This document shows positions 4,020 through 20,762 of a stretch of DNA of 64,000 nt, piece by piece. This DNA comes from Candidatus Latescibacterota bacterium (GTDB taxonomy: Bacteria; Latescibacterota; UBA2968). Position 1 is the first letter of the stretch, and every line of letters starts with the position of its first letter. Where the stretch lies: positions 448,001-512,000 of the forward strand of contig OZ220741.1 of the NCBI GenBank assembly GCA_965116885.1, in the 5' to 3' direction. The notes beneath the pieces are model-generated. The model was not told the origin of the DNA. It ran no database searches and saw only the letters and a list, made by a program, of their open reading frames with translations. Position numbers and translations under genes: made by a program.

Positions 4020-6878
4020 ATGCGTACATCGTGGATCATTTTTCTCTTACTATGGAGTACTTGCTCGGTCGTAGCTCAGGATCTCGGTAGCTTGGCTGGA
4101 AAAGTGGAAGATGAAACGGGAGAAGCATTATTCGCGGCCAATATCACAGTCAAAGGACCGGCTATTGAAGGCGTAAGAGGCGCAATCACCAACGACCAGG
4201 GGAACTATCGCATCGACCGCTTGCCACCGGGCATTTACGAAATCACCATCAGTTATATCGGATATGAAACCCTGGTGGCAACCGGCGTAGAAATCCGCGC
4301 TGGCGAAAGCATGACGCGAGATTTCAAACTGACCGCCGTAGCCCTCATCGGTCAACAAGTGGTCGTATCAGCATCGCGCAAACAGGAAAAAGCCCTGGAC
4401 GCACCCGCTTCAATAGCAACGATCGAAGCAGCCGAAATCAGAGATCGGGGGGTCTTGTCGCCAAGTGAGCATATCAAAGCCCTGCCCGGTGTTGACTTTT
4501 CCAAAACGGGCATCTCACAAAGCAACGTGGTGGTTCGCGGATTCAACAATGTATTTTCCGGTGCATTGCTCACACTTGTTGACAACCGCATTGCCCGCGT
4601 CCCTTCCCTGCGTTTCAATGCCTTTGATATGATCCCCGTTACCGGTGAAGACATTGAGCGCATTGAAGTGGTTTTGGGACCCGGATCCGCGCTTTACGGT
4701 CCCAACACCTCCAGTGGCGTGATGCACATTATCACCCGCTCCCCATTTGAATCAGAAGGCAATGCAATTTCCATATCTGGCGGCCAGCGCAGTGTGCGAA
4801 AATTATCACTGCGGCACGCCAGCAGCCTCAACGACAAAATTGGGATCAAAATTTCGGTTGGGCAAAGTTCAGCCCATGACTGGGAGTACATCGATCCCCT
4901 GGAAGTAGAAACGCGCGGTTTTAATCCACGCGATTACAACTCGAAAAAGACATTGGGAGAACTGAGACTCGATTTTCGACCAACAGATGACCTGACGATC
5001 ATAGGATCAACGGGTTATACAAAAACAAGCGGTATTGAATTGACGGGTTTGGGCGCGGGTCAGGCAAAAGACTGGACCTATAATTTTTATCAAGGTCGCC
5101 TGCTATATCGCGAGTGGTTCGCACAAATTTTCTACAACGCGAGTAATGCAGGTCAAACGAGAATGATCGCAGCCGACGACCCAATTGTGGATAATTCATA
5201 TTTGATGGTCATGCAATTGCAACACAATGCCAGCCTGGGAGAAAAACAACACTTTGCTTATGGTGCTGATGTACTGCTCACCCGACCCAAAACAGGGGGC
5301 ACCATAAATGGCATGCACGAAGACATTGATAACATCGATGAATACGGGATCTATTTGCAAAGTGAAACCAGCCTGAGCGATCAAATCGAGATGGTCTTGG
5401 CCGGACGCATCGACAAACACAGCCATATCGAAGACCCGTTTTTCTCACCCCGCGCGGCACTGGTCATCAAACCCAGACCGCTCAACACCCTGCGCTTGAC
5501 GTATAACCGCGCATTTAGCACGCCTTCGACCACCAACTTATTTTTAGACCGGATCGGCGTCCCCGACCCCTTTGGGTTCGGCGCATTGCAACCGTCATTG
5601 GGATTTAATCCAGCAATTGACGTTCGCGCACAGGGCACCGCCGGTACCGGGTTCACATTTCGCAGAGACGGCAATGGACTGCCCATGTATCGGACGCCCT
5701 TTGCGCCCATAGCGGGATTGTCAAAAGAACACTACTTCGCTCTGCACGATCCGCAAGGCACCAATTTGATGTGGGGCGCTGCCAGATCAATAATAATGGG
5801 TATCCTCCTGGCCGAATTGGAACCTCTCGCAACAGGGCTTTTCGTAGATCGGCTTGGACTACCACAAGATCAAGCGGCTGCGGTAGCCGCACAACTGGTT
5901 GCAGACTTCCCCGGGATTATCCCAGAACAACTGCCGGGTTTGCAAAATACGGCCGGGACACTGAATACGGCAACGGCGAGTTTTGATCCCGTGCCCAGCC
6001 TCGCCAATGCAGTGGCAGACATAAACAAAATCGAATCGACCATCTCAGAAACCTTTGAAGTGGGATACAAAGGCGTCATCAACAACAAACTCATTCTCGC
6101 AGCCGATGTCTATCTAAGCAGAAAAAGAAATTTCACCAGCCCGTTGCGGATTGTAACACCCAGTGTATTTCTCGCAGCCGGTCCCATGAGCGAAGCTCTG
6201 GAAAACGGAATTACCGAGAACTTGAAAGACCCGGCCAATGCAAGTCTCGCAATTGCCATCGGTCTTTTAGATCAACTCAACCTGCCGGATCTGGGCCTAA
6301 TTGGCAATGGCAATGGCACAGGCATAGATGAATTGACGCAGTTATTTGTATCCAACGCCGCGGGGATTCCCTTTGGCACCATGTCTGCCGAACAGGCATC
6401 GGACCCCACTGCGGTGATGGTCGCATATCGCAATTTTGGTCGCATAACGCTCTACGGTGCCGACCTATCTTTTGCGTATTATCCAAACGAAATATGGACT
6501 TTTACGGGCAATTACTCCTATGTCAGCGATGATTGGTTCCCCAATTTAGACAACATCGGCGACATAGCCCTCAATGCCCCCCGGCACAAATTTAACATCG
6601 GTATCGATTGCCAACTGCCCAATACACCGCTCACCATCCGCGGGAAATTGAGCTATCGCGATGGTTTTCCCATGCAATCGGGTGTATATGTCGGCGATGT
6701 AGATGCTTATACTGTTTTGGACCTGAGTACCTCATATCAGTTGCCTATTTCACATGATCGCTTCAAGATCACCTGGAATGTGGAAGCCAGCAACGTGTTA
6801 AACCAGGAATATCGATCATTTATCGGTGCGCCATTTATTGGACGCCTGGTCTTAACGGGCCTGAATATTCGATTCTAA
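4020..6878 (+). CDS. TonB-dependent receptor with N-terminal carboxypeptidase-regulatory-like domain (paralog 1)
   Basis: Signal peptide, VVVSASR TonB box, plug motif IERIEVVLGPGSALYG, C-terminal Phe. Confidence 0.92.
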   Translation: MRTSWIIFLLLWSTCSVVAQDLGSLAGKVEDETGEALFAANITVKGPAIEGVRGAITNDQGNYRIDRLPPGIYEITISYIGYETLVATGVEIRAGESMTRDFKLTAVALIGQQVVVSASRKQEKALDAPASIATIEAAEIRDRGVLSPSEHIKALPGVDFSKTGISQSNVVVRGFNNVFSGALLTLVDNRIARVPSLRFNAFDMIPVTGEDIERIEVVLGPGSALYGPNTSSGVMHIITRSPFESEGNAISISGGQRSVRKLSLRHASSLNDKIGIKISVGQSSAHDWEYIDPLEVETRGFNPRDYNSKKTLGELRLDFRPTDDLTIIGSTGYTKTSGIELTGLGAGQAKDWTYNFYQGRLLYREWFAQIFYNASNAGQTRMIAADDPIVDNSYLMVMQLQHNASLGEKQHFAYGADVLLTRPKTGGTINGMHEDIDNIDEYGIYLQSETSLSDQIEMVLAGRIDKHSHIEDPFFSPRAALVIKPRPLNTLRLTYNRAFSTPSTTNLFLDRIGVPDPFGFGALQPSLGFNPAIDVRAQGTAGTGFTFRRDGNGLPMYRTPFAPIAGLSKEHYFALHDPQGTNLMWGAARSIIMGILLAELEPLATGLFVDRLGLPQDQAAAVAAQLVADFPGIIPEQLPGLQNTAGTLNTATASFDPVPSLANAVADINKIESTISETFEVGYKGVINNKLILAADVYLSRKRNFTSPLRIVTPSVFLAAGPMSEALENGITENLKDPANASLAIAIGLLDQLNLPDLGLIGNGNGTGIDELTQLFVSNAAGIPFGTMSAEQASDPTAVMVAYRNFGRITLYGADLSFAYYPNEIWTFTGNYSYVSDDWFPNLDNIGDIALNAPRHKFNIGIDCQLPNTPLTIRGKLSYRDGFPMQSGVYVGDVDAYTVLDLSTSYQLPISHDRFKITWNVEASNVLNQEYRSFIGAPFIGRLVLTGLNIRF

Positions 6879-6922
6879 AAGCTTTCCCAAAAAATCCGAA
6901 TTATTGCGATAAGGAGGATTTG

Positions 6923-9784
6923 ATGCGCGTATTATATATCCTTGCTTTCGTACTGTGGAATGCTTACTCGGTCATAGCTCAGGATTTCGGCAGCTTGACT
7001 GGAAAAGTGAAAACAGAGGACGGAGTAATTTTATTCGGTGCCAATATCATAGTCAAAGGACCGGCCATTGAAGGCATCCGGGGCGCAATCACCAACGACC
7101 AGGGAAACTATCGCATAGACCGCTTGCCACCGGGCATTTACGAAATCACCATCAGTTATATCGGATATGAAACGGTGGTTGTATCGAATGTAGAAATCCG
7201 CGCTGGCGAAAGTATGACGCGAGATTTCAAACTGACCGCTGTAACCCTCATTGGTCAACAAGTCGTGGTATCGGCATCGCGCAAACAGGAAAAAGCCCTG
7301 GACGCGCCCGCCTCAATTGCAACAGTCGATGCATCTGAAATCAGAAATCGAGAAGTCTTGACAATGAGTGAATATGTCAAGACTCTGCCCGGCGTTGACT
7401 ATGCTCAAACAGGCATATCGCAAGGCAGCATGGTCGTTCGCGGATTCAACAAAGTATTTTCTGGCGCACTGCTCACACTCGTTGACAATCGCATTGCCCG
7501 CATCCCATCCCTGCGCCTCAATGCTTATGATTTGATCCCCCTTACCAGTGACGACATTGAGCGCATCGAAATCGTTCTGGGACCCGGATCCGCGCTTTAC
7601 GGTCCCAACAGTGCCAATGGCGTGATGCACATTATCACCCGATCCCCGTTTGGATCAGAAGGCAATACAATTTCTATATCTGGCGGCCAGCGCAGTGTGC
7701 GAAAATTATCGCTGCGGCACGCCAGCAGCCTCAACAACAAGATCGGGATCAAAATTTCAGGTGGATATGTTGCAACCCATGACTGGGAATATGTCGATTC
7801 CCTGGAAGTGGAAGCACGCGGATTTAATCCACGCGATTATAGCACAGAAAGGACAAGTGGGGAGTTCAGACTCGATTTTCGACCAACAGACGACCTGACG
7901 CTGATAGGGTCGGTGGGCTATTCAAAAATGAGCGGCCTTCAACAGACGGATTTGGGTGCGGGCCAGGCGAAAGACTGGATCTATAATTTTTATCAAGGCC
8001 GCCTGCTCTATCGCGGGTGGTTCGCACAAGTCTTCTACAACACCAGTAATGCGGGCGAAACGGAACTGATCACAGCCGGCGACCCAATTGTAGATAATTC
8101 ACATTTAATAGTCTTGCAACTGCAACACAATGCCAGTTTGGGAGAGAAACAACACTTTGCTTATGGTGCTGACGTGCTGCTCACCCGGCCCAAAACACAG
8201 GGCACAGTACACGGCATGCATGAAAACAATGACGATATCGATGAATACGGGATCTATCTACAAAGCGAAACCAACCTGAGCGATCAAATCAATCTGATAC
8301 TGGCCGGACGCATCGACAAACACAGCCATATCGAAGATCTGTTTTTTTCTCCTCGCGCGGCACTGGTCATCAAACCTACGCCGGAAAACACCCTGCGATT
8401 GACATATAACCGCGCATTTAGCACGCCCTCAACCCCCGACTTGTTTGTAGATCGAGTCGGCGTTCCCGACGTCTTTATGCTGGGGACAAATTTCAGTCCG
8501 GTATTGGGATTTAGTCCAGCAATTGACCTTCGCGCACAGGGCACCGCCGGTACCGGATTCACATTTCGCAGAGACGACAATGGGCTCCCCATGTTTCGGA
8601 CGGCTTTCGCGCCCATAGCGGGCTTGTCAAAAGATCACTACTTCTCTATGCACGACCCCCAGGCCACCAATTTGATGTGGCGCGCTGCCAGAGAGGCAAT
8701 ACTGGACGGCTTTCTATCTGAACTGGAACCTCTCGCAACGGAGCTTATCGCAGGCGGGCTTGGGCTACCACCAGATCAAGCGGTTGCGCTGGTCGAAAAA
8801 CTCGTCGAGATCTTTCCCGGAACTATCCCAGAACAACTGCCGGGCTTGCAAAATACGGCTGCGACACTGAATGCAGAAACGCAGGGTTTCGATCCCATAC
8901 CCGACCTCGCCAATGCAGTGACAGACATAGAAAAACTCGGCCCCACCATCACAGAAACCTTTGAATTGGGATACAAAGGCGTCATCAAAAACAAACTGAT
9001 CCTGGCAGCCGATGTCTATCAAACCAGAATCAAAAATTTCGTCAGCCCGTTGCGGATTGAAACGCCCAACGTATTTCTCGCACCCGGTCCCTTAAGCGAA
9101 GCCCTGACAGACGCGCTTACCGAGAACCTGAAAGACCCTGCCAATGCAAGCCTCGCAATTGCCCTTATTTTTTTAGACCAACTCAACGAGCCAGAGTTGG
9201 GTTTGGTTGGCAATGGCAATGGAACAGGCGTGGATGAATTGACGGCGTTATTCGTAGCCAACGCAGCGCTGATCCCATTTGGTACCATAGTGCCCGAACA
9301 GGCGGCAGACCCCAATGCAGTGATCGTCGCACCCCGCAACTTTGGCAACATAACGCTCTACGGTGCTGACCTATCATTTGCTTATTATCTAAACGAAATA
9401 TGGGCTTTTACCGGCAATTATTCCTACGTCAGCAAGGACTTGTTCCCCAATTTAGACAACATCGGCGACATTGCCCTCAATGCTCCCCGGCACAAATTTA
9501 ACATCGGAGTCGATTGCCAACTGCCCAATATACCGCTCACGATCCGAGGAAAATTGCGCTACCGTGACGGCTTTCCAATGCAATCGGGTATATATGTCGG
9601 CGATGTAGATGCCCATACGGTTCTGGACTTGAATCTCACCTATCAATTGCCACTTTCAAATGATCGCTTCACCACCACCTTGAGTTTGGATGCCAGCAAT
9701 TTGCTAAACCAGGGATATCAATCACTTGTCGGTGCGCCCTGGATCGGACGCCTGATTACAAGCAGCTTGCATGTTCGATTCTAA
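6923..9784 (+). CDS. TonB-dependent receptor (paralog 2, tandem duplicate)
   Basis: Colinear and highly similar to 4020-6878, AAGGAGG RBS, C-terminal Phe. Confidence 0.92.
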   Translation: MRVLYILAFVLWNAYSVIAQDFGSLTGKVKTEDGVILFGANIIVKGPAIEGIRGAITNDQGNYRIDRLPPGIYEITISYIGYETVVVSNVEIRAGESMTRDFKLTAVTLIGQQVVVSASRKQEKALDAPASIATVDASEIRNREVLTMSEYVKTLPGVDYAQTGISQGSMVVRGFNKVFSGALLTLVDNRIARIPSLRLNAYDLIPLTSDDIERIEIVLGPGSALYGPNSANGVMHIITRSPFGSEGNTISISGGQRSVRKLSLRHASSLNNKIGIKISGGYVATHDWEYVDSLEVEARGFNPRDYSTERTSGEFRLDFRPTDDLTLIGSVGYSKMSGLQQTDLGAGQAKDWIYNFYQGRLLYRGWFAQVFYNTSNAGETELITAGDPIVDNSHLIVLQLQHNASLGEKQHFAYGADVLLTRPKTQGTVHGMHENNDDIDEYGIYLQSETNLSDQINLILAGRIDKHSHIEDLFFSPRAALVIKPTPENTLRLTYNRAFSTPSTPDLFVDRVGVPDVFMLGTNFSPVLGFSPAIDLRAQGTAGTGFTFRRDDNGLPMFRTAFAPIAGLSKDHYFSMHDPQATNLMWRAAREAILDGFLSELEPLATELIAGGLGLPPDQAVALVEKLVEIFPGTIPEQLPGLQNTAATLNAETQGFDPIPDLANAVTDIEKLGPTITETFELGYKGVIKNKLILAADVYQTRIKNFVSPLRIETPNVFLAPGPLSEALTDALTENLKDPANASLAIALIFLDQLNEPELGLVGNGNGTGVDELTALFVANAALIPFGTIVPEQAADPNAVIVAPRNFGNITLYGADLSFAYYLNEIWAFTGNYSYVSKDLFPNLDNIGDIALNAPRHKFNIGVDCQLPNIPLTIRGKLRYRDGFPMQSGIYVGDVDAHTVLDLNLTYQLPLSNDRFTTTLSLDASNLLNQGYQSLVGAPWIGRLITSSLHVRF

Positions 9785-11116: not shown

Positions 11117-12802
11117 TCAAGCAGACACAATGCGGATATCAACCTCAAATGTACTGACGGGATAATTTATACCCCAGATTTCGAGAACGCCGGGATGAAC
11201 TTCGCCAATAAGCCCGTAAACGCGCTCGCCTACGCAGATCTCGCCACTGCGACCGGGTAAAAATGTGGGATGCTCAATCGGCGCAATAGTATATTCAAAG
11301 TCAAAATAATAAGATAATACCTCCAGATAGCTCTGAATACCAGACAAATTGGCCTCGTCACTCGCTTCGAGCGCGCAAAGATGAATATCTGTGCGCGTAC
11401 CGTAATCTTCTCCCGACGCGAGAACCCCCACCTCACCCACTTCAAAAATCCGATGCGGGTACAACGCGCGGCGGCTTGTCGCTTCGGTCTTCAACAAACC
11501 GGGCAGCAGTGCCCCCCGAATCGCGCTGTAATTTTCGGACATGGGATTTGAAATCGAGACAATCTTTGCATCTGGATTATTCATATCCACGGTCTGTTCT
11601 TTTTTAGAACAGAGAATCGGCAAAAAGACCTCTTGAAATCCGCTCCCAACCATGAGATTGCGAAATCGGTCTGCAAGATCCTCTTCTGGTGCGGCTTTGC
11701 CAATCGTAAAATCCCGGGGCATCTCGGGTTCAAAAGCCTCGTACCCCACACCGATCACAACATCTTCCACCACATCGACGGGATGCAAAATATCGTCGCG
11801 ATAAGGTGCTGGACGCACTTTAATAATCCGGTCTCGTACATCAACATCCCGATAACCCATCGCGTTGAGCGCGGTCTGAATCTGCCCTATCGAAATATGT
11901 GACCCAACCACTTTGTAAATCTCATCTATATCGACTTGCAATGGCTCGGTCATATCATACGGACACGTCACAACCTGTCCCCTCGGCGTGTGAAATGGAT
12001 ACCGCACCGTCACGGGATAAATGCGACCGCCCCGGTCAGCCATATTGACCGCCATAATCGCCATAGACAAAAGAATAGCGTCGAGTTCAGGACCCGTTGC
12101 TTCGCAAAACAAAAACGTATCCCCCACTTCAACGCGCCCCAGGCTCTGACTATTAATAACAGGAGGCATCGAAAGAACCTCGCCGCGCGAATCGCGGATC
12201 AGGGGAAACTTATCCTTCCCCTCGAGAAGATGTGCATACATCCTGCCCGTGGGATGATCGGACAAAATCTGTCGCAAAGACATCTCATCTTCAAACTCCA
12301 GAGGAACAAAAGCCGTCACATCGGGATCAACCGCATCGTATCGCACCGGATACACAATATCGGACGCATCGTAAATCCCAATCGCAACAACGCTGCGCCC
12401 GCGCCCATATCCATCGGCGAGTTTTTCCTGCGCCTCGATAAGCGCATCCAGTGCCGCATCATCAATCGCAATACCCTCACACGCAAAAGCGGCAATATAG
12501 GGACGGATATTTCGCAAGCCGGGATCGACAATAACCTCCCGTTCCTGCGATACGCCAGACGCATCAAAAAAAGAATAATCCGGCTTCACATTCTCCCGAT
12601 GGCTTTTGAGCAATCGCGCAAGCCCCTCTCCCGACCACAAATCGGGGCGGTTGGTATCCTTGAGTTGAATGCGAAGCGTATCGCCCTCTTCCGCATCGAT
12701 CTCAGCCTTCGCCGTTTCAAGCGCAACACTCAAACTCTCCGAAGAATAAACCTGCCCTGCGAGACGTTCAAAATCGGGTTTATTAACTGTAATCGTTGGC
12801 AT
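11117..12802 (-). CDS. pheT: Phenylalanine--tRNA ligase beta subunit, archaeal/eukaryal (short) type
   Basis: 561 aa beginning MPTITV, with TNRPDLWS, VLSMPPVINS and YRDDILHPVDVVEDV. No B2 OB-fold and no B8 FDX anticodon-binding domain. Confidence 0.93.
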   Translation of the reverse strand: MPTITVNKPDFERLAGQVYSSESLSVALETAKAEIDAEEGDTLRIQLKDTNRPDLWSGEGLARLLKSHRENVKPDYSFFDASGVSQEREVIVDPGLRNIRPYIAAFACEGIAIDDAALDALIEAQEKLADGYGRGRSVVAIGIYDASDIVYPVRYDAVDPDVTAFVPLEFEDEMSLRQILSDHPTGRMYAHLLEGKDKFPLIRDSRGEVLSMPPVINSQSLGRVEVGDTFLFCEATGPELDAILLSMAIMAVNMADRGGRIYPVTVRYPFHTPRGQVVTCPYDMTEPLQVDIDEIYKVVGSHISIGQIQTALNAMGYRDVDVRDRIIKVRPAPYRDDILHPVDVVEDVVIGVGYEAFEPEMPRDFTIGKAAPEEDLADRFRNLMVGSGFQEVFLPILCSKKEQTVDMNNPDAKIVSISNPMSENYSAIRGALLPGLLKTEATSRRALYPHRIFEVGEVGVLASGEDYGTRTDIHLCALEASDEANLSGIQSYLEVLSYYFDFEYTIAPIEHPTFLPGRSGEICVGERVYGLIGEVHPGVLEIWGINYPVSTFEVDIRIVSA

Positions 12803-12822
12803 TTTTTATTCCTGATATTTAT

Positions 12823-14361
12823 CTACCGCGTATTCCTGACCAGATCCAAATCCGTACTGAACAAATCGCGAATATCGTTAATACCCAGCGCGACCATCGC
12901 CATTCTATCAACCCCCAGACCCCAGGCAATAACTGGCACATCCACACCCAGAGGTCGTGTAAGTTCAGGCCGAAAAAGACCCGCGCCACCAAGTTCGATC
13001 CATCCCAGAACGGGATGCTTCGCCTGAAGTTCGACCGAAGGCTCGGTAAAAGGAAAATAATCGGGCACATAGCGCACATCTTCGGCCTGCGCGATCTCAA
13101 GGGCGAACAGCTTGAGCAAACCGAGCAAACTGCGAAAATTTATCTCCTCGCCCAAAACAATACCCTCAGCCTGAAAAAAATCTGCCGCGTGCGTGGCATC
13201 GACATCATCCGGACGAAAACAACGCGCAAGAGCGAAATACTTACCCGGGATATTCGGTTCTGAAGCGAGCGCACGCGCCGAAAGCGCAGTGCCCTGACTC
13301 CGCAAAATAAGGCGGCGCGACTGTTCGGGATTAAATTCATATCGCCACCCGCGCGACCCCGTATCGCCCCCATTTTGATGCGCCTCAGCCACCCGGGAAA
13401 AATGGGGTTCCTCTGCCTCTCGGGATTGCGTTGGCTCCGTAACATAATACGCATCGTGAATATTGCGCGCCGCGTGAAACTGCGGCATAAAAAGGGCATC
13501 CATATTCCAGAACTCGGTCTCCACCAGAGAACCTTTCAACTCTTCAAAACCAAGCGCCATCAACCGGCGCCGCACATTATCGAGATACGCCCGATAGGGA
13601 TGGTGCTTCCCAATAAGCACGCGCGGCGGCTTAATCGACAAATCATATCGGCGAAAAGATGCGCCCTGCCATGTACCTTTCTGAATCATTTCCGGCGTAA
13701 GCCGAGAAACTTCATCACCCGTAAGATTGGCTTTGACAACCTCCACAAGCACGCGCCGCCCTTCTTCCGTAAGACAATAAACCCGCTCTGTGCGCTCGTC
13801 CAAACGAACAGGCGCCCTGCCCCCGCCGCGCTTGCGGGCATTGGCTTCAATATATTGGACAACATCACCGGGAAAATTATCAATCTCAATTCCCGTATCG
13901 GAAAATTTGTCAAACAATTCTGGCATAAGTCGATCAATAAAAAAAGAAGCCCGATCTGCATCGACAATAACAACAGCCCCCTTATCCAGATCGATAATCC
14001 CATCCTTTTTCAAACCGCCAAAAGCACTGCCCCAGGCACCTCTGTCAAAACGCTCGTCGGCTTGCAAATCTTGAATCCCAACGCGCTCTGCACTCGCCCG
14101 GGTCAAAAGTGCCGTCTCTGGCGTCGCGCCCTTTGTTGCAAAATCCCGTCCCACTTCCGTAAGCGAAACTGTTGCGCGCGTATTTTCCCCGGTAACTTCG
14201 AGCAACTGCTTGGAAATCAGCCACTCAACCGCGCGTCTAACCTGTCCTTCGCCAATGCCTGCCCCCTTTTGAAGTTGTGCATCGGACTGCTCGGCACTGG
14301 CATTATTCTCATATACACGCAAAATGCGAATTTCGAGCGCATGTAAAGAAGCGAGATCCAT
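12823..14361 (-). CDS. pheS: Phenylalanine--tRNA ligase alpha subunit, archaeal/eukaryal (long) type
   Basis: About 512 aa with a long N-terminal extension, LTPEMIQKGTW, GKHHPY, FWNMDALFMPQFHAAR, DATH, YFPFTEPS, WIELGGAGLFRPE. Confidence 0.94.
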   Translation of the reverse strand: MDLASLHALEIRILRVYENNASAEQSDAQLQKGAGIGEGQVRRAVEWLISKQLLEVTGENTRATVSLTEVGRDFATKGATPETALLTRASAERVGIQDLQADERFDRGAWGSAFGGLKKDGIIDLDKGAVVIVDADRASFFIDRLMPELFDKFSDTGIEIDNFPGDVVQYIEANARKRGGGRAPVRLDERTERVYCLTEEGRRVLVEVVKANLTGDEVSRLTPEMIQKGTWQGASFRRYDLSIKPPRVLIGKHHPYRAYLDNVRRRLMALGFEELKGSLVETEFWNMDALFMPQFHAARNIHDAYYVTEPTQSREAEEPHFSRVAEAHQNGGDTGSRGWRYEFNPEQSRRLILRSQGTALSARALASEPNIPGKYFALARCFRPDDVDATHAADFFQAEGIVLGEEINFRSLLGLLKLFALEIAQAEDVRYVPDYFPFTEPSVELQAKHPVLGWIELGGAGLFRPELTRPLGVDVPVIAWGLGVDRMAMVALGINDIRDLFSTDLDLVRNTR

Positions 14362-14405
14362 CAAGAGAAACTCCTTATGTAGCGATCAACACTCTACTGA
14401 CTGTC

Positions 14406-14531: not shown

Positions 14532-14803
14532 AAAAAAGCCCCTTCGTCATCATATAGGGACGAAAGAGCTTCTCCGCGGTACCACCCTATTTGCGCTAAA
14601 AAGCACCACTCAGCGGATGGCCATCACCATCCTGTCCATTATCGGTGGACCCACCGGCTCGGCTTAATAGGAAACTGTCTCTCCATTCGGCTTTGCAGCT
14701 CGGGAGGGAACTTCGCCTGTGCATCCTGCAGATGTGCTTTCAGCCCAGGACACATCCTCTCTATGCAGTTGGGAACAGGCTACTTTTCTCCGTCATAGCT
14801 TTA
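14532..14803 (-). ncRNA. T-box riboswitch (tRNA-Phe specific, transcription antitermination)
   Basis: Stem I contains a UGA/GA K-turn, AGUA, the AGAGA and GCUGAAA distal motifs, and specifier GAAG-UUC (14710-14708). T-box AAUAGGGUGGUACCGCG pairs with CGUCCCU. Terminator AGCUCUUUCGUC..GACGAAGGGGCU-UUUUU. Confidence 0.93.
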
Positions 14804-14810
14804 AAGGCAA

Positions 14811-14855: not shown

Positions 14856-17108
14856 CTATCCGCCAACCGATTTTCCAAAGGCACTCACAAACAGAAGAAA
14901 ATCGGGAAAGTCAACAGTACCGTTCCTATCGATATCATATTGGGCCTCGGACGATCCAAATGCCCCTACAAACAGGAGAAAATCAGCAAACTCGATTACG
15001 CCATTGCCGTCAAAATCCGATTTGGCTTCCACAGAAAGCGGCTGGACAACGCCAGAAATCGTCAGCATAAACCTTGCGCGATCCGGATCATTACTCAAAA
15101 TATTGATACTACCCGAAAACTCGCCCTCCATGGGTTTGGGAAACGTAATCGTAATCGTCGCCGAACTATCCGGAGATAGTGTAAACATAGAAGGCTCAAA
15201 CGTCAAACCCGACACATCGCTCTCAATACCCGTAATCTCCAGAGGCGCAGTACCCGTATTCGTAATCGTAAAAGTCTGCTGAGCTGTCTTCTCAGCATCA
15301 ATACTCCCAAAATCAATCGCCGGTTCACCCACAACAAGCACAGGCGCAGGTGCCGCCTGCACAATCACAGAAACGGATAAAGTCCGCGTCGCACGATCAG
15401 GATCATTACTCGAAATCGTGATATTACCCGAAAATGTGCCTTCCACAGAACTCGGAAATGTCACCGTCACCGTGCGCGAACCGCCAGGTTCCAATGTGAA
15501 CATCGTAGTATCAAACGTCAAACCCGACACATCGCTCTCAATACCCGTTATCTCCAGCGGTGCTGTCCCCGTGTTCTCAATCGCAATCGTCTGTTGACCT
15601 GTTTGACCTGCCTCAATAGCACCGAAATTAACAGCCGTTTGCTGAACCGCAATCACCGGCACAGGTGCCGCCTGCACAATCACAGAAATAGATAATATCT
15701 GCGTTGCACGATCCGGATCATTACTCGAAATCGTGATATTCCCTGAAAATGTGCCTTCCACAGAACTCGGAAACGTAATTGTCACCGTCTGTGAACCATT
15801 GGGTGCCAGGGTGAACATCGTAGTATCAAACGTCAAACCCGACACATCGCTCTCAATACCCGTAATCTCCAGCGGTGCAGTACCCGTGTTCATAATCGCA
15901 ATCGTCCGTTGACCTGTTTGGCCTGCCTCAATAGTGCCAAAATCAACTGCCGTTTGCTGAACCGCAATCACCGGCGCAGGTGGCGGCTGGACAATCACAG
16001 ACACGGATAAAGTCCGCGTTGCGCGATCAGGATCATTACTCGAAATCGTGATATTACCCGAAAACGTGCCCTCCACAGAACTCGGAAACGTCACCGTCAC
16101 CGTCTGTGAACCATTGGGAGCCAGTGTAAATGTAGAAGGCGTAAACGTCAAACCCGACACATTACTCTGAATACCCGTAATCTCCAGCGGTGCAGTACCT
16201 GTATTCCTGATCGTAATCGTCTGTTGACCTGTCTGCCCTGCCTCAATAGTACCGAAATTAACTGCCGTTTGCTGCACAGCAATCGCTGGTGCAGGGGGCG
16301 GTTGAACAATCACAGAAACGGATAATGTCTGTGTTGCACGATCCGGATCATTACTCGAAATCGTGATATTACCCGAAAACGTGCCCTCCACAGAACTCGG
16401 AAATGTCACCGTCACCGTCTGAGAACCGTTGGGCGCCAGTGTGAACATTGTAGTATCAAACGTCAAACCCGACACATCGCCCTCACCCTTAATCCCCGTT
16501 ATCTCCAAATCCGCTGTACCCGTGTTTGTAATCGTAATCGTTTGTTCACCTGTTTGACCGGCGTCAATAGTCCCGAAATCAATAGCTGTTTGCTGCACAG
16601 AGATCGCTGGCACAGGCGCGGGTATTTGTGCCAACAACTCATCAACCACCTTTGCCGCGTTACTACGTGCAGTGGAATTCGTCAAACTGCTTGATGCAAA
16701 AAAGCGCACAATTCCATCGGGACCAACGACAATGAGATCCTCAAGGCCGAATGGGCTACCTGCGTTTCGGAGCACAGGAAAAGTGACACTTGCGGCAGTG
16801 CGAAAACTATTAACTTGACCCGGATTACCATTCCAAACATCGAGACCCAACATGGCAAAATTATCGGAATCTTTATACTTACCCCAAATTTCGCTTTCGA
16901 GAGACGGACCCGCCTCTCTACAGCGCGTTCAACTCCACCCAATGACCGCAAGCACGAGTACTTTGCCTTCATAGTCAGAGGCCTTATGTGTAGTGCCGCT
17001 GGGATCTGGGAAAGAAAAATTAACAATCGGTTGCCCAACCGTTTGTGCAGAAGCAGCCCCAACGAGCAAAAGTAGAATCATCGGGATGGACAATAGATAT
17101 TTACGCAT
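14856..17108 (-). CDS. Predicted secreted selenoprotein (750 aa): signal peptide, redoxin/thioredoxin-fold domain with UxxC (Sec60), five Ig-like ASH/choice-of-anchor-D repeats, paired EF-hand/dockerin-like tail
   Basis: Track ORFs 16929..17183 and 14856..16853 share a frame and are separated only by TGA at 16931-16929. Read-through gives ..YEGKVLVLAVIGWS-U-TRCREAGPSLESEIWGKYKDSDNFAMLGLDVW..VTFPVL..LIVVGPDGIVRF. A SECIS hairpin follows the TGA. Confidence 0.88.
15045..16620 (-). repeat. Five intragenic tandem repeats, 315-bp (105-aa) period
   Basis: acaatcacag recurs at 15361, 15676, 15991 and 16306. Each unit contains FG.I.AGQTG..TITI.NTGTAPLEITGI..SNDPDRA. Confidence 0.92.
16892..16925 (-). 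promoter_or_regulatory. Bacterial SECIS element
   Basis: UGA-ACG-CGCU-GUA-GAGAGGCG-GGUC-CGUCUCUC-GAA-AGCG: an 8-bp upper stem starting 10 nt after the UGA with a GGUC apical loop, plus a 4-bp lower stem. Confidence 0.85.
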
Positions 17109-17142
17109 GGCATTTATCCTTATATATTGGTGAAAGAAAGAC

Positions 17143-17168
17143 GGGACGGCACGGGGGCCGTCCCCTAC
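17143..17168. repeat. GTAG-type REP palindrome
   Basis: gggacggcacgggggccgtcccctac. Confidence 0.8.
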
Positions 17169-17263
17169 AACAACATGCTGCAATGACGGCTCTCCTGTCC
17201 TAAAGGTATCAACGCTTCAATCTAACAGAAGTTTCTCCACGGGTCAACCACAAGGAGCGAGCG

Positions 17264-18241: not shown

Positions 18242-19471
18242 ATGAGCAAACGCGATGCAGAGCAAGTTCAAAAAGTATTGTCTGGCGACCAGGCTGCTTA
18301 CGAACCGCTGGTTGAGGCGTATCAAGGGCGCATCTTTGCCTTTGTAGCTGGTCGAATCCGCAACTTTTCCGCAACAGAAGACATCGTACAAAATGCGTTT
18401 GTGGAGGCATACATGCACCTCAAGTCTCTAAAATCGCCCGAAAAATTCTCAGGTTGGCTGCGGGGAATTGCACTCAATCTATCGAACAAATGGATTCAAC
18501 AAAAGCGCCCCGCCGTCTCAATAGACGAAACATCACAAGATGTGACACCTGAAATATCAGAATTTCCACTGCCGGACTTACCCGACGAAGCACTGGAAAA
18601 AACCGAAACAGAAGAAGTCGTTATAGCCGTCGTTGATGCATTACCAGACATTTATCGGGAATCAGTACTGCTCCACTACATGGAAGGCATGACCTATCCC
18701 GAAATCGCAGCCTTTCTCGACATCCCCGAAAGCACAGTAACCGGACGCCTTCAGGTCGCGCGCAATCGCTTGCGCGACGAATTGATGCCGCTGGTAGAAG
18801 ACACGCTCCGCGAAAAACGTCCAACACCTCAACTGACGCGCAAAATAATGGCCGCATTACCCCCGCTATTGTACGCAGTACCAACACAGGCGAGTCTGCT
18901 CGCAAAACTGAAAGGAACGGGCATGATTAAAATAACGGGTATCATCGGCGCAGGAATCGCGGGAACGGGATTGTATTTTGGTGGGATTTCGGCAGTATGG
19001 AATTTAGGACAAGAAAACACTGAGCCATCCCAGGTGCCCCAAATACAGCTCGAATTGGAAAACCTCGCTCAAAATGAGCAATCCGTTCCTGAGAAAACTA
19101 ACGAAACAGAGGGCGTAGAATCTTCGCCACAAGAAGTCCAATCCGATTCCAATACAAGTGGCGAAACACAAACAGAAAAACTGGACTTCAAAATGGAAAC
19201 TTCGCCACAAGATTCACTGGTAAAAATAGTGTACTGGATACCAGAGACGGTCTATTCAGACTCCGTCTTTATAGAACTCGAATGCTACAATAATATGGGC
19301 ATGATAGTAGCCAGACCGATCAATAAAACACACGCACCGGGTTCTTATACGACGTTCTTATCTAAACAAGGACTTCCCGACGGAATATACTTCGTGCAAT
19401 TAGAAGCAAATCAATCCAAAAAAAATGCCCAGATACGGAAATTAAATCTAATTTGGACAGACAGAAAGTGA
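18242..19471 (+). CDS. ECF sigma-70 factor with C-terminal extension (TM-like segment, acidic linker, T9SS-CTD/FlgD-like Ig domain)
   Basis: Sigma2 EDIVQNAFVEAY..FSGWLRGIA.N and sigma4 YRESVLLHYMEGMTYPEIAAFLDIPESTVTGRL, followed by about 220 extra aa. Confidence 0.88.
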   Translation: MSKRDAEQVQKVLSGDQAAYEPLVEAYQGRIFAFVAGRIRNFSATEDIVQNAFVEAYMHLKSLKSPEKFSGWLRGIALNLSNKWIQQKRPAVSIDETSQDVTPEISEFPLPDLPDEALEKTETEEVVIAVVDALPDIYRESVLLHYMEGMTYPEIAAFLDIPESTVTGRLQVARNRLRDELMPLVEDTLREKRPTPQLTRKIMAALPPLLYAVPTQASLLAKLKGTGMIKITGIIGAGIAGTGLYFGGISAVWNLGQENTEPSQVPQIQLELENLAQNEQSVPEKTNETEGVESSPQEVQSDSNTSGETQTEKLDFKMETSPQDSLVKIVYWIPETVYSDSVFIELECYNNMGMIVARPINKTHAPGSYTTFLSKQGLPDGIYFVQLEANQSKKNAQIRKLNLIWTDRK

Positions 19472-19478
19472 GGTCAGC

Positions 19479-20762
19479 ATGTATTTCAACAAGTGCAAAC
19501 TGGTAGCAAGTCTGGCAATATGTCTAATTGCATATTCTCTGTGTTTTGCACAACAGCCAACCCATTCCAAAGAAGAAATGAAGCGATTTCGCCAATTTGC
19601 GTCCGGATACCTCCCCAAGACCCCAGATCAGTATTGGGAGGGCATTCTGGGACTGGAGCAACTGCTTGCGGATTATCCCAATACCTTTTTGAAAGGCGAC
19701 ATCTCCATCACCCTGTTGGGTTATTACCAACACGTCACCGATGATCCACACCTGTTGATTGAACTCTCTGAAAAAATGCTCGCATTGCGAAGGCACACCA
19801 ATGGTGCTTATGAAACGGCTGCTCGGGCACTCGTAGATAAGAAAGTTCGGTCTGATAAAACGCTTCTATATGCACAAAACGCATTAAAAGAAGCATTGCA
19901 GAACCAGGAAAAATGGGAAAATTACGGTAAAAGAGAATTAATCTGCCGGGATCTATTGGCGCGTGCTCATCAACTCCTTGGACAACACGACCGTGCTGTC
20001 CAAGAAATAAAAACCGCGCTACGCGGTTGGCAAACCCGAGAAGATTTAGGCGACCTGGAACTGGCATCTCGGCAGGCGTCAGTAGATAGGGCAAAGACCC
20101 ACTTGCTTCGAATCTATATCGACCAAAAAGCATGGACAGAGGCTTATGAACTCGCCTCAGAACTATTGCTAACCTCAGTCATACGCCAGGATATAGCAGA
20201 ACTGTGGAGCCAAGCTTATGCTGGCAAACACGGCTCAGGTGCGGGGATGAGCAAAGCATACGCTGCCTTAAAATCCGAGCGGAAGGAAAAAATCATCCAA
20301 AGCGTCGAAAAAGAACGCATTTTACGCTCTGCACCGGCCTTTGAAGTCCAGAAGTTAGACGGTGAAAAAATCACGTCAGCAGACTTAAAAGGCAAAGCTG
20401 TGGTACTAACATTTTGGGCGGGATGGTGCAGCCCGTGCATTGAAGAACTGCCCTATCTCCAAAACCTCAACGCGCAATTTCTCAAGCAAAATGTCGAATT
20501 TTTAGCTGTAAATATCGACCAGGACAGCTCAATGCGCCGGGATATGGTCGCCAGCTTTCGGTACCAGAGCGCACCGCTCTTAACCTTTGCATTGGGCGAT
20601 CTGGAAATGCGAAAAGCGTTTGGCTCCGACGAGATTCCCTATACCTGCATCATCGACCAGAACGGACAAATTCGGTATGAGCGCAAGGGATTAGGTGCAG
20701 ATTTCAGCGTGGCAATGGCGCATCAATTGCAATGGGTCATCGGAATGAACGAGGCACCGTAA
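19479..20762 (+). CDS. Secreted TPR-like + TlpA-family thiol-disulfide oxidoreductase
   Basis: Signal peptide, helical repeats, LKGKAVVLTFWAGWCSPC..ELP, IPYTCIIDQNG. Confidence 0.88.
   Translation: MYFNKCKLVASLAICLIAYSLCFAQQPTHSKEEMKRFRQFASGYLPKTPDQYWEGILGLEQLLADYPNTFLKGDISITLLGYYQHVTDDPHLLIELSEKMLALRRHTNGAYETAARALVDKKVRSDKTLLYAQNALKEALQNQEKWENYGKRELICRDLLARAHQLLGQHDRAVQEIKTALRGWQTREDLGDLELASRQASVDRAKTHLLRIYIDQKAWTEAYELASELLLTSVIRQDIAELWSQAYAGKHGSGAGMSKAYAALKSERKEKIIQSVEKERILRSAPAFEVQKLDGEKITSADLKGKAVVLTFWAGWCSPCIEELPYLQNLNAQFLKQNVEFLAVNIDQDSSMRRDMVASFRYQSAPLLTFALGDLEMRKAFGSDEIPYTCIIDQNGQIRYERKGLGADFSVAMAHQLQWVIGMNEAP

Follow-up and report, generated by a model that had tools for sequence, protein, structure and literature searches.

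We analyzed a 64,000-nucleotide stretch of contig OZ220741.1 from a Candidatus Latescibacterota bacterium (hereafter the window, numbered from its first letter) and describe one gene on its minus strand that appears to encode a secreted selenoprotein. Between 17108 and 14856 this strand holds a single frame of 750 codons followed by TAG, with exactly one in-frame TGA. The TGA is codon 60 (16931-16929), lies within GKVLVLAVIGWS-U-TR-C and occupies the first position of a UxxC redoxin site. When the codon is read through, the protein runs from a signal peptide (residues 1-21) through a redoxin head (residues 22-162) and five immunoglobulin-like (Ig) repeats to a 58-residue tail.

14856..17108, minus strand: whole gene, 750 codons plus TAG, one in-frame UGA predicted to be read as selenocysteine
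17046..17108, minus strand: predicted Sec-pathway signal peptide, residues 1-21, cleavage after ASA (inspection and hydropathy)
16623..17045, minus strand: redoxin head, residues 22-162, ResA/TlpA-like thioredoxin fold, G-W-S-U60-T-R-C63
16929..16931, minus strand: predicted selenocysteine codon TGA (residue 60)
16892..16925, minus strand: predicted bacterial selenocysteine insertion sequence (SECIS) hairpin within the coding sequence, with an upper stem of 8 bp and the loop GGUC (16910-16907)
16299..16610, minus strand: Ig repeat 1 (choice-of-anchor D / HYDIN-ASH-like)
15984..16289, minus strand: Ig repeat 2
15669..15974, minus strand: Ig repeat 3
15354..15659, minus strand: Ig repeat 4
15039..15344, minus strand: Ig repeat 5, which diverges most, with 70-75% DNA identity to the other four
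14859..15032, minus strand: predicted C-terminal dockerin-fold domain with two Ca-binding loops, common to 70 open reading frames (ORFs) of the genome

The original prediction, made from the letters of the window, had proposed that two ORFs are one frame split by a single TGA, that this codon stands at the first Cys of a thioredoxin-fold CxxC, that the upstream half carries a signal peptide, and that automated annotation would break the gene. The continuous frame bears out the first of these, and the site U60-T-R-C63, with Cys at that position in 5 of 59 heads, agrees with the second. The N-terminus has the basic-hydrophobic-ASA pattern of a signal peptide (by inspection and hydropathy rather than a predictor run); it contains no Cys and therefore no lipobox, and the protein is very likely exported through the Sec pathway. 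Annotation does break the gene: calling with table 11 recovers only the 665-amino-acid downstream piece (14856-16853) and not the upstream half, and entry P0002 of the public protein set is this post-TGA piece. A whole-length homolog search returned 3 proteins, each beginning downstream of the UGA, and the only name given to one truncated public member is "DUF1573 domain-containing protein", under the NCBI label Candidatus Latescibacterota. The only U or C residues of the 750-codon protein are 60 and 63, both in the head. A contig of sequencing run X2 spans 16587-17162 with 0 differences at a depth of 54; since X2 may be the source of the assembly, conservation across relatives is the stronger argument against a sequencing error. 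Taken on its sequence evidence, this is a real, unannotated selenoprotein.

Recoding of UGA60

UGA60 is almost certainly read as selenocysteine (Sec), which SelB and tRNA-Sec would insert with a downstream hairpin as guide. The genome, a single contig of 5.56 Mb, holds the Sec machinery on which the original prediction depended: selA (492 bits), selB (385), selD (369) and tRNA-Sec (70) all score above their cutoffs, and selD, which adjoins tRNA-Sec, itself has an in-frame TGA. The bacterial SECIS (bSECIS) model, as set out in the accessible text of PMC13188914, calls for a loop of 3-9 nt with G in the first two places, a stem of 4-16 bp, a distance of 16-37 nt from the UGA and a minimum free energy of at most -7.5, and the hairpin lies within all four bounds (GGUC loop, 8 bp, a start 18 nt downstream of the UGA, -19.6 kcal/mol). 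Its 46-nt fold has a z of -4.0, with 0 of 200 shuffles equally stable, and its 60-nt fold a z of -2.6, with 1 of 200. Our genome-wide SECIS filter is loose (319 of 12,144 TGA junctions pass), so the hairpin alone proves little and the case rests on conservation.

Among 34 relatives, the top three hairpin pairs are kept in 100 of 102 cells and exchange among G-U, G-C and A-U; 1 of 500 shuffles equalled the covariation score, and no slid control did. When 40 fourfold-degenerate sites are ranked by variability, the lowest four belong to codons +5 to +8, which form the hairpin, and the codons used there, GGT for Gly and CCG for Pro, make up just 24% and 27% of such codons genome-wide. A three-codon signature of the hairpin is present in 36 of 54 Sec heads and in 0 of 5 Cys heads. 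By these comparative measures the hairpin is under selection as RNA.

The codon itself alternates between TGA and Cys, as the original prediction anticipated: the 59 distinct heads from fetched loci have 54 TGA, 4 TGT and 1 TGC at the catalytic codon, and TGA recurs there in four families of the class. The head is matched in 55 of 61 related genomes, and a 25-row head profile finds it in 108 of the 168 genomes of the phylum, 131 of which have selA. Among the 150 phylum-wide matches listed (there were 31 further), 143 contain one TGA, 1 contains TGA and TAG, 1 contains TAA and 5, the Cys versions, are free of stops. In a 72-row tree with many unresolved forks, the Cys heads fall within Sec clades at several points. 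The family match with TAA in place of TGA inside the head (G029:C34:81947-82324, plus strand) is a decayed copy or an assembly error. A census of TGA codons in the genome also gave further likely selenoproteins, namely a SelW/Rdx-like CAAU protein (G000:C1:1,580,922, plus strand), an AhpC-like UPHC protein (4,348,487, minus strand) and SelD (608,597, minus strand).

If the gene were instead a pseudogene or the product of a sequencing error, TGA would be a genuine stop, as the public gene calls beginning after it and the two TGA-bearing genomes with no selA match (G012 and G050) might suggest. Both of these assemblies are fragmented, at 430 and 820 contigs, and the same codon is TGA over four families of the class, the hairpin is selected, and intact frames extend to about 1700 codons; we regard this alternative as extremely improbable. 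Three observations had been named beforehand as counting against a selenoprotein: a genome with no Sec machinery, a codon that is really TGC, TGT or TGG, and homologs with a residue other than Cys and no conserved hairpin. None of them was found on examination; TGA is present both in relatives and in the public contig of run X2, and the hairpin is conserved and covaries.

A redoxin head that lacks the cis-proline

The read-through head matches Pfam AhpC-TSA (PF00578) at 35.7 bits against a cutoff of 26, PF08534 (Redoxin) does not match it at E 0.001, and none of the NCBIfam selenoprotein models does at E 0.1. The structural model of the head (predicted local distance difference test, pLDDT, 95) has a thioredoxin fold with a TlpA-type extension, and the nearest structures are 2ls5 and ResA, with template modeling (TM) scores of 0.77-0.87. 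In all 25 aligned heads U, C, P and the GLD motif are invariant. The cis-proline position is Glu123 in this head; 92% of 92 class domains have E, D or H in this column and 91% of 140 Cys relatives have Asp, and P stands there in ResA and in 75% of 8 WCxxC-type rows. According to the accessible parts of PMC2757866 and PMC2665069, the cis-proline helps substrate-peptide binding and may keep metals off the CxxC, and peroxiredoxins have Arg at this position. Neither that Arg nor the PxxxTxxC/U site of peroxiredoxins is present in the head. The original prediction of a UxxC thioredoxin fold with an AhpC-TSA match stands, but with the cis-proline gone this is no ordinary TlpA or AhpC domain; the alignments place the head in a cis-proline-less G-x-x-[U/C]xxC subfamily.

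ResA, TlpA and CcmG resemble the head in the fold with its N-terminal hairpin extension (TM about 0.8), the position of the CxxC and export. They differ in having A-x-W-C where the head has G-x-x-U, so that their W-C-x-x-C motif is absent (the head has G-W-S-U instead), and in having a cis-proline and a membrane anchor, which the head lacks; its scores against their family models are 26.5 and 27 bits against cutoffs of 170 and 230. UxxC selenoproteins with AhpC-TSA and redoxin domains are known, being listed among 119 families in the accessible text of PMC13188914 and also in that of PMC9312934. The PF00578/PF08534 forms in Table 1 of PMC13188914 share with the head the AhpC-TSA match, Sec first in UxxC and a SECIS just 3' of the UGA, but that table gives no form with an Ig stalk, dockerin or T9SS (type IX secretion system) tail, and a term search of the article found 0 occurrences of "dockerin" and "secret". 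A pattern scan of 185,579 genomes yielded 3 loci, which were two ordinary WCxxC TlpA proteins and one chance frame. Some relatives give weak scores to the deiodinase model NF038285, far below its cutoff of 250, and this protein gives none; a deiodinase identity was rejected.

A search of 1.84 billion representatives gave 155 aligned domains in its best 150 matches, and 140 of these domains share Gly at -3. Many of the best 150 matches are 260-residue proteins composed of a signal peptide, the head and a T9SS sorting domain; this last is found in 56 of the 150 by our own profile, 43 of 68 Cys relatives hand-picked from the 150 pass TIGR04183 (the T9SS sorting domain), and 7 of the 150 end in a dockerin tail. 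One such G-x-x-CxxC redoxin with a T9SS type A sorting domain is P0106 from Calditrichota, named "T9SS C-terminal target domain-containing protein"; our literature search found no paper on this group. Its members share with our protein the G at -3, GP after the site, GLDxW/YxG, an acid at the cis-proline position and a signal peptide, but have Cys in place of Sec, are about 260 residues long, and carry a T9SS tail or a lipoprotein-type N-terminus where our protein has stalk and dockerin. Within the class, the Sec head of family f3 ends in a T9SS-type tail at 3 of 4 loci (L183, L184 and L186). Because Cys and Sec relatives alike carry such tails, dockerin and T9SS-type tail appear to replace each other.

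Two more Sec heads with a T9SS-type tail were seen in f3 (L054 and L063), the tail of L054 lying in a different frame; these two and the three f3 loci above are candidate T9SS-secreted selenoproteins. Other architectures were also encountered. An Ig-less protein (L047:616-4161, G009) joins the same Sec head and a dockerin to leucine-rich repeats (LRR) and a C-terminal HExxH protease-like domain, and another (L062:2614-4500, G052) has a repeat domain and one Ig, then a WUPVC redoxin, which is a different Sec redoxin, and a dockerin.

Stalk, dockerin tail and variation of the head

The five Ig repeats match choice-of-anchor D (NF012200) in 5 stretches totaling 305.7 bits and are mutually 70-89% identical in DNA. 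An Ig domain is about 4 nm long, and five would reach roughly 20 nm. Relatives have 0, 1, 2, 3, 4, 5, 6, 11 or 14 repeats between head and tail. Together the repeats also pass the cutoff of the OS_HP2/DUF1573 (seleno)protein model NF041425 (138.6 against 100), a misleading label. That selenoprotein carries a UGC site (PMC13188914, accessible text), which is absent here, no Cys or Sec lying outside residues 60 and 63, and membership was rejected.

The tail model (pLDDT 95.5) shows a duplicated Ca-loop/helix fold and best matches the type II dockerin 2y3n (TM 0.85, E 1.9e-4), and nine of the next ten structural matches are cohesin-dockerin or scaffoldin complexes. Of the EF-hand/dockerin-like tail first proposed, the Ca-binding dockerin fold is supported, but this is not a plain EF-hand. 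A profile of the tail finds 70 ORFs in the genome, with the domain C-terminal in 30 and mostly near the N-terminus in the remainder. The 65 that were scanned include chondroitin lyases, a sulfatase, GH10, GH113, three S8/M8/M10 proteases, heme-binding HmuY, 12 LRR proteins, a Cys redoxin, and WD40, NHL, cadherin and Fn3 proteins; 18 of the 65 have no Pfam match. Three cohesin-like ORFs are present, all ending in a FlgD/T9SS-type domain: two, of 1232 and 1692 amino acids, also carry a dockerin, and the third is a 281-amino-acid ORF at 4,084,152. SprA is present in the genome, and cohesin is matched in 60 of the 61 related genomes. A T9SS-type tail ends 15 ORFs, the selenoprotein not among them, and TIGR04183 finds no T9SS sorting domain in it. 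Complex prediction, made for the tail with the cohesin of the 1692-amino-acid scaffold only, scored 0.02 against a mark of 0.32, which speaks neither for nor against binding. As read from these domain assignments, the dockerin/cohesin/T9SS set has the anatomy of a docking system, with binding as a prediction.

Cellulosome-type cohesin-dockerin systems (2y3n) likewise place a dockerin fold on many exported enzymes and cohesins on large scaffolds. Here, in contrast, the host is diderm, each scaffold has one cohesin and a T9SS-type tail, binding is predicted, and the cargo is aimed at glycosaminoglycans, protein and host contact. "Cellulosome-affiliated enzymes" are noted for Latescibacteria in the accessible text of PMC7081726, citing Farag 2017; dockerin, cohesin and selenium go unmentioned in the main texts of PMC4454575 and PMC12993501. 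At L044:2534-13566 (G000:C1:1,014,536-1,025,574) lie three tandem large exported proteins with T9SS-type tails, two of which, with a dockerin followed by a cohesin, could polymerise into a surface scaffold or an S-layer-like coat.

The head is unusually variable. Among 14 syntenic copies its identity is 45-96% (median 59), as against 88-98% for the adjoining PhyH and 72-98% for the head, also UxxC, of a two-Ig paralog. Omega is 0.65 for the head versus 0.11-0.19 in the first Ig, the paralog head, the paralog Ig and PhyH, and a site-model test gives a 2dL of 31.2 (p 1.7e-7) for the head and at most 0.2 for the four controls. About 16% of head sites are at omega 3, and six have a posterior over 0.9 (R64, S72, T104, A105, A138 and N150). 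By this codon analysis, only this head shows diversifying selection when set against the four controls, and its fast-changing surface suggests contact with something outside the cell. At 88% likeness the head is not covered by contigs of RNA runs X15 and X16 or of DNA run X3; one X16 contig links the signal-peptide region to the stalk over about 390 bases that find no match, a pattern consistent with a divergent head. The paralog is a second selenoprotein of the family, with GYN-U-GT-C, two Ig repeats and a dockerin (G000:C1:225,650-227,051, plus strand; L045:3652-5052), and shows strong conservation across the 17 genus copies that were compared. Of 23 runs listed as holding the gene family, 11 are labelled sponge metagenome.

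Possible roles and the surrounding locus

Our best reading, toward which we lean only modestly, is that the gene encodes an exported, surface-displayed selenol-thiol oxidoreductase of a sponge-associated Latescibacterota bacterium. The signal peptide would carry the protein through the Sec pathway. It is likely that U60 then acts as attacking selenolate and C63 as resolving thiol in a thiol-disulfide or oxidant-scavenging cycle of the thioredoxin-fold type. With Glu for cis-proline, the head probably forms no polypeptide clamp, unlike ResA and TlpA. It also seems reasonably probable that the Ca-binding dockerin tail fixes the protein to cohesin domains of scaffolds with T9SS-type sorting tails and that the Ig repeats are a spacer setting the reach of the head. 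The enzyme would then share this place with some 70 dockerin-tagged companions, lyases, proteases and LRR proteins among them, and its job may be the redox upkeep of this exposed enzyme coat, or of host-matrix contacts, under host oxidants. The original prediction had suggested part of a surface redox system; export is well supported by the signal peptide, while outer-membrane passage, docking and catalysis are steps that we infer.

Several observations weigh against this reading. We know of no electron source beyond the outer membrane; a single DsbD-type donor gene was found, which serves the periplasm, and no conserved redox partner adjoins the gene among its neighbors (phyH upstream, T-box and pheS downstream). 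Sixty-eight of the 70 dockerin ORFs, the selenoprotein included, have no T9SS tail of their own that would take them across the outer membrane. Only 3 cohesins stand against 70 dockerins, the match of the tail to dockerin_GC (NF041540) is marginal at 29.8 against 29 bits, and Pfam Dockerin_1 does not match it at E 1e-6. The outer hairpin pairs are weakly kept (column 32-45 is paired in 5 of 34), and kinship among the sequences inflates the shuffle control for covariation. The selection test used our own code, a fixed tree and 14 sequences, tandem paralogs are possibly mixed in it, and recombination, indels or misalignment can mimic positive selection. Contigs from RNA runs cover tail and stalk and not the head, so they do not speak for expression of this allele; Sec insertion, activity and location are computational predictions.

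The supply of electrons is the main weakness, and for this reason we keep a periplasmic role as an unlikely but not negligible alternative. The protein would then be a selenol reductase or isomerase fed by DsbD, working in the manner of ResA and TlpA on exported proteins before they exit, with dockerin and stalk tethering it inside the envelope. ResA is among the nearest solved folds, the DsbD-type gene is present and would solve the electron supply, and the protein is without a T9SS tail. However, the cis-proline that ResA and TlpA use for substrate binding (PMC2757866 and PMC2665069, accessible parts) is missing, relatives bear T9SS-type tails, the dockerin-tagged companions are polymer-degrading enzymes, and stalks of up to 14 repeats and a fast-evolving head fit a housekeeping job poorly. 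The lost cis-proline would suit a surface binder of metal or metalloid, in which a soft metal, to be captured or detoxified, is chelated by U60, C63 and the Glu, Asp or His that replaces the cis-proline, and heme-binding HmuY bears the same tail. That residue, though, differs between heads (E, D or H), the preceding loop ranks with the most variable parts, and no metal transporter or regulator adjoins the gene, which makes this role improbable.

Also to be weighed is a covalent adhesin or host-interaction protein whose selenolate exchanges with host disulfides to tether or edit them, with stalk length and head surface tracking host or phage. Such a role draws on the low identity of the head relative to PhyH and the paralog head, the six sites of high posterior, the relative that fuses the head to LRR and a protease-like domain, and the holders labelled sponge metagenome; but the invariant resolving Cys speaks for release rather than a lasting bond, variation of this kind is missing from the conserved two-Ig paralog, and no host partner is known, so that we consider it quite improbable. 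A broader proposal, speculative and on the whole unlikely, places the selenoenzyme on the outer surface, on a T9SS-exported, cellulosome-like cohesin scaffold, with its selenolate breaking or swapping disulfides of host matrix or defence. In that proposal an arms race with the host would have left its trace in the length of the stalk, which has 1-14 repeats at one locus, and in the selected surface of the head. The G-x-x-[U/C]xxC proteins that lack the cis-proline would form a widespread, undescribed outer-surface redox class, re-reduced in a way not yet known.

A literature search, mostly of titles and abstracts with few subscription papers, found neither a selenoprotein from Latescibacterota nor one that has a dockerin or T9SS tail, although supplementary selenoproteome lists of metagenome surveys could hold family members; within these limits the architecture is, in line with the original prediction, not one that we found described. 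The novel findings are the cohesin/T9SS context, the relatives with T9SS tails in both Sec and Cys form, the absence of the cis-proline, the range of 0-14 repeats and the selection signal of the head. The class-wide selenoprotein subfamily (108 of 168 phylum genomes) cannot be seen in public protein sets, since gene callers place the start beyond the UGA. The cis-proline-less redoxin subfamily is undescribed, and its Cys members from other phyla should be easily expressed. A further outcome is that an uncultured symbiont of sponges has a dockerin-tagged exoproteome of 70 members, together with cohesin scaffolds that end in T9SS-type tails. If the proposed location is true, this would be a bacterial selenoenzyme acting at the cell surface, of which our search found no description, and how an enzyme beyond the outer membrane obtains electrons would become a testable question.

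The gene lies between a divergent phyH-type gene upstream and a T-box leader with pheST downstream, a phyH / T-box-pheS locus that is kept across the genus, sometimes with the selenoprotein gene as a tandem pair. Further features of the locus are as follows.

14553..14805, minus strand: T-box leader of the downstream pheST, with its own promoter-like site at 14839-14811
17219..17247, minus strand: promoter-like site TTGACC-17-TAGATT with TG (consensus match only)
17143..17164, minus strand: GC-rich hairpin in the 5' leader

The T-box was the sole match in an Rfam scan, and since it has its own promoter-like site, the selenoprotein gene is probably monocistronic. The leader hairpin belongs to a palindromic repeat (window 17136-17180) with 74 BLAST matches genome-wide, 4 of them in the window, and, being terminator-like, could limit transcription of the selenoprotein gene. 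Under the T-box, at 11117-14364, are pheS (513 amino acids) and pheT (561), subunit sizes that we take to be of the archaeal/eukaryotic type. An extracytoplasmic function (ECF) sigma factor with a long C-terminal extension (409 amino acids) is followed, within 18242-20762, by a 427-amino-acid protein with a C-terminal Cys redoxin domain, and two tandem TonB-dependent receptors of about 950 amino acids occupy 4020-9784.

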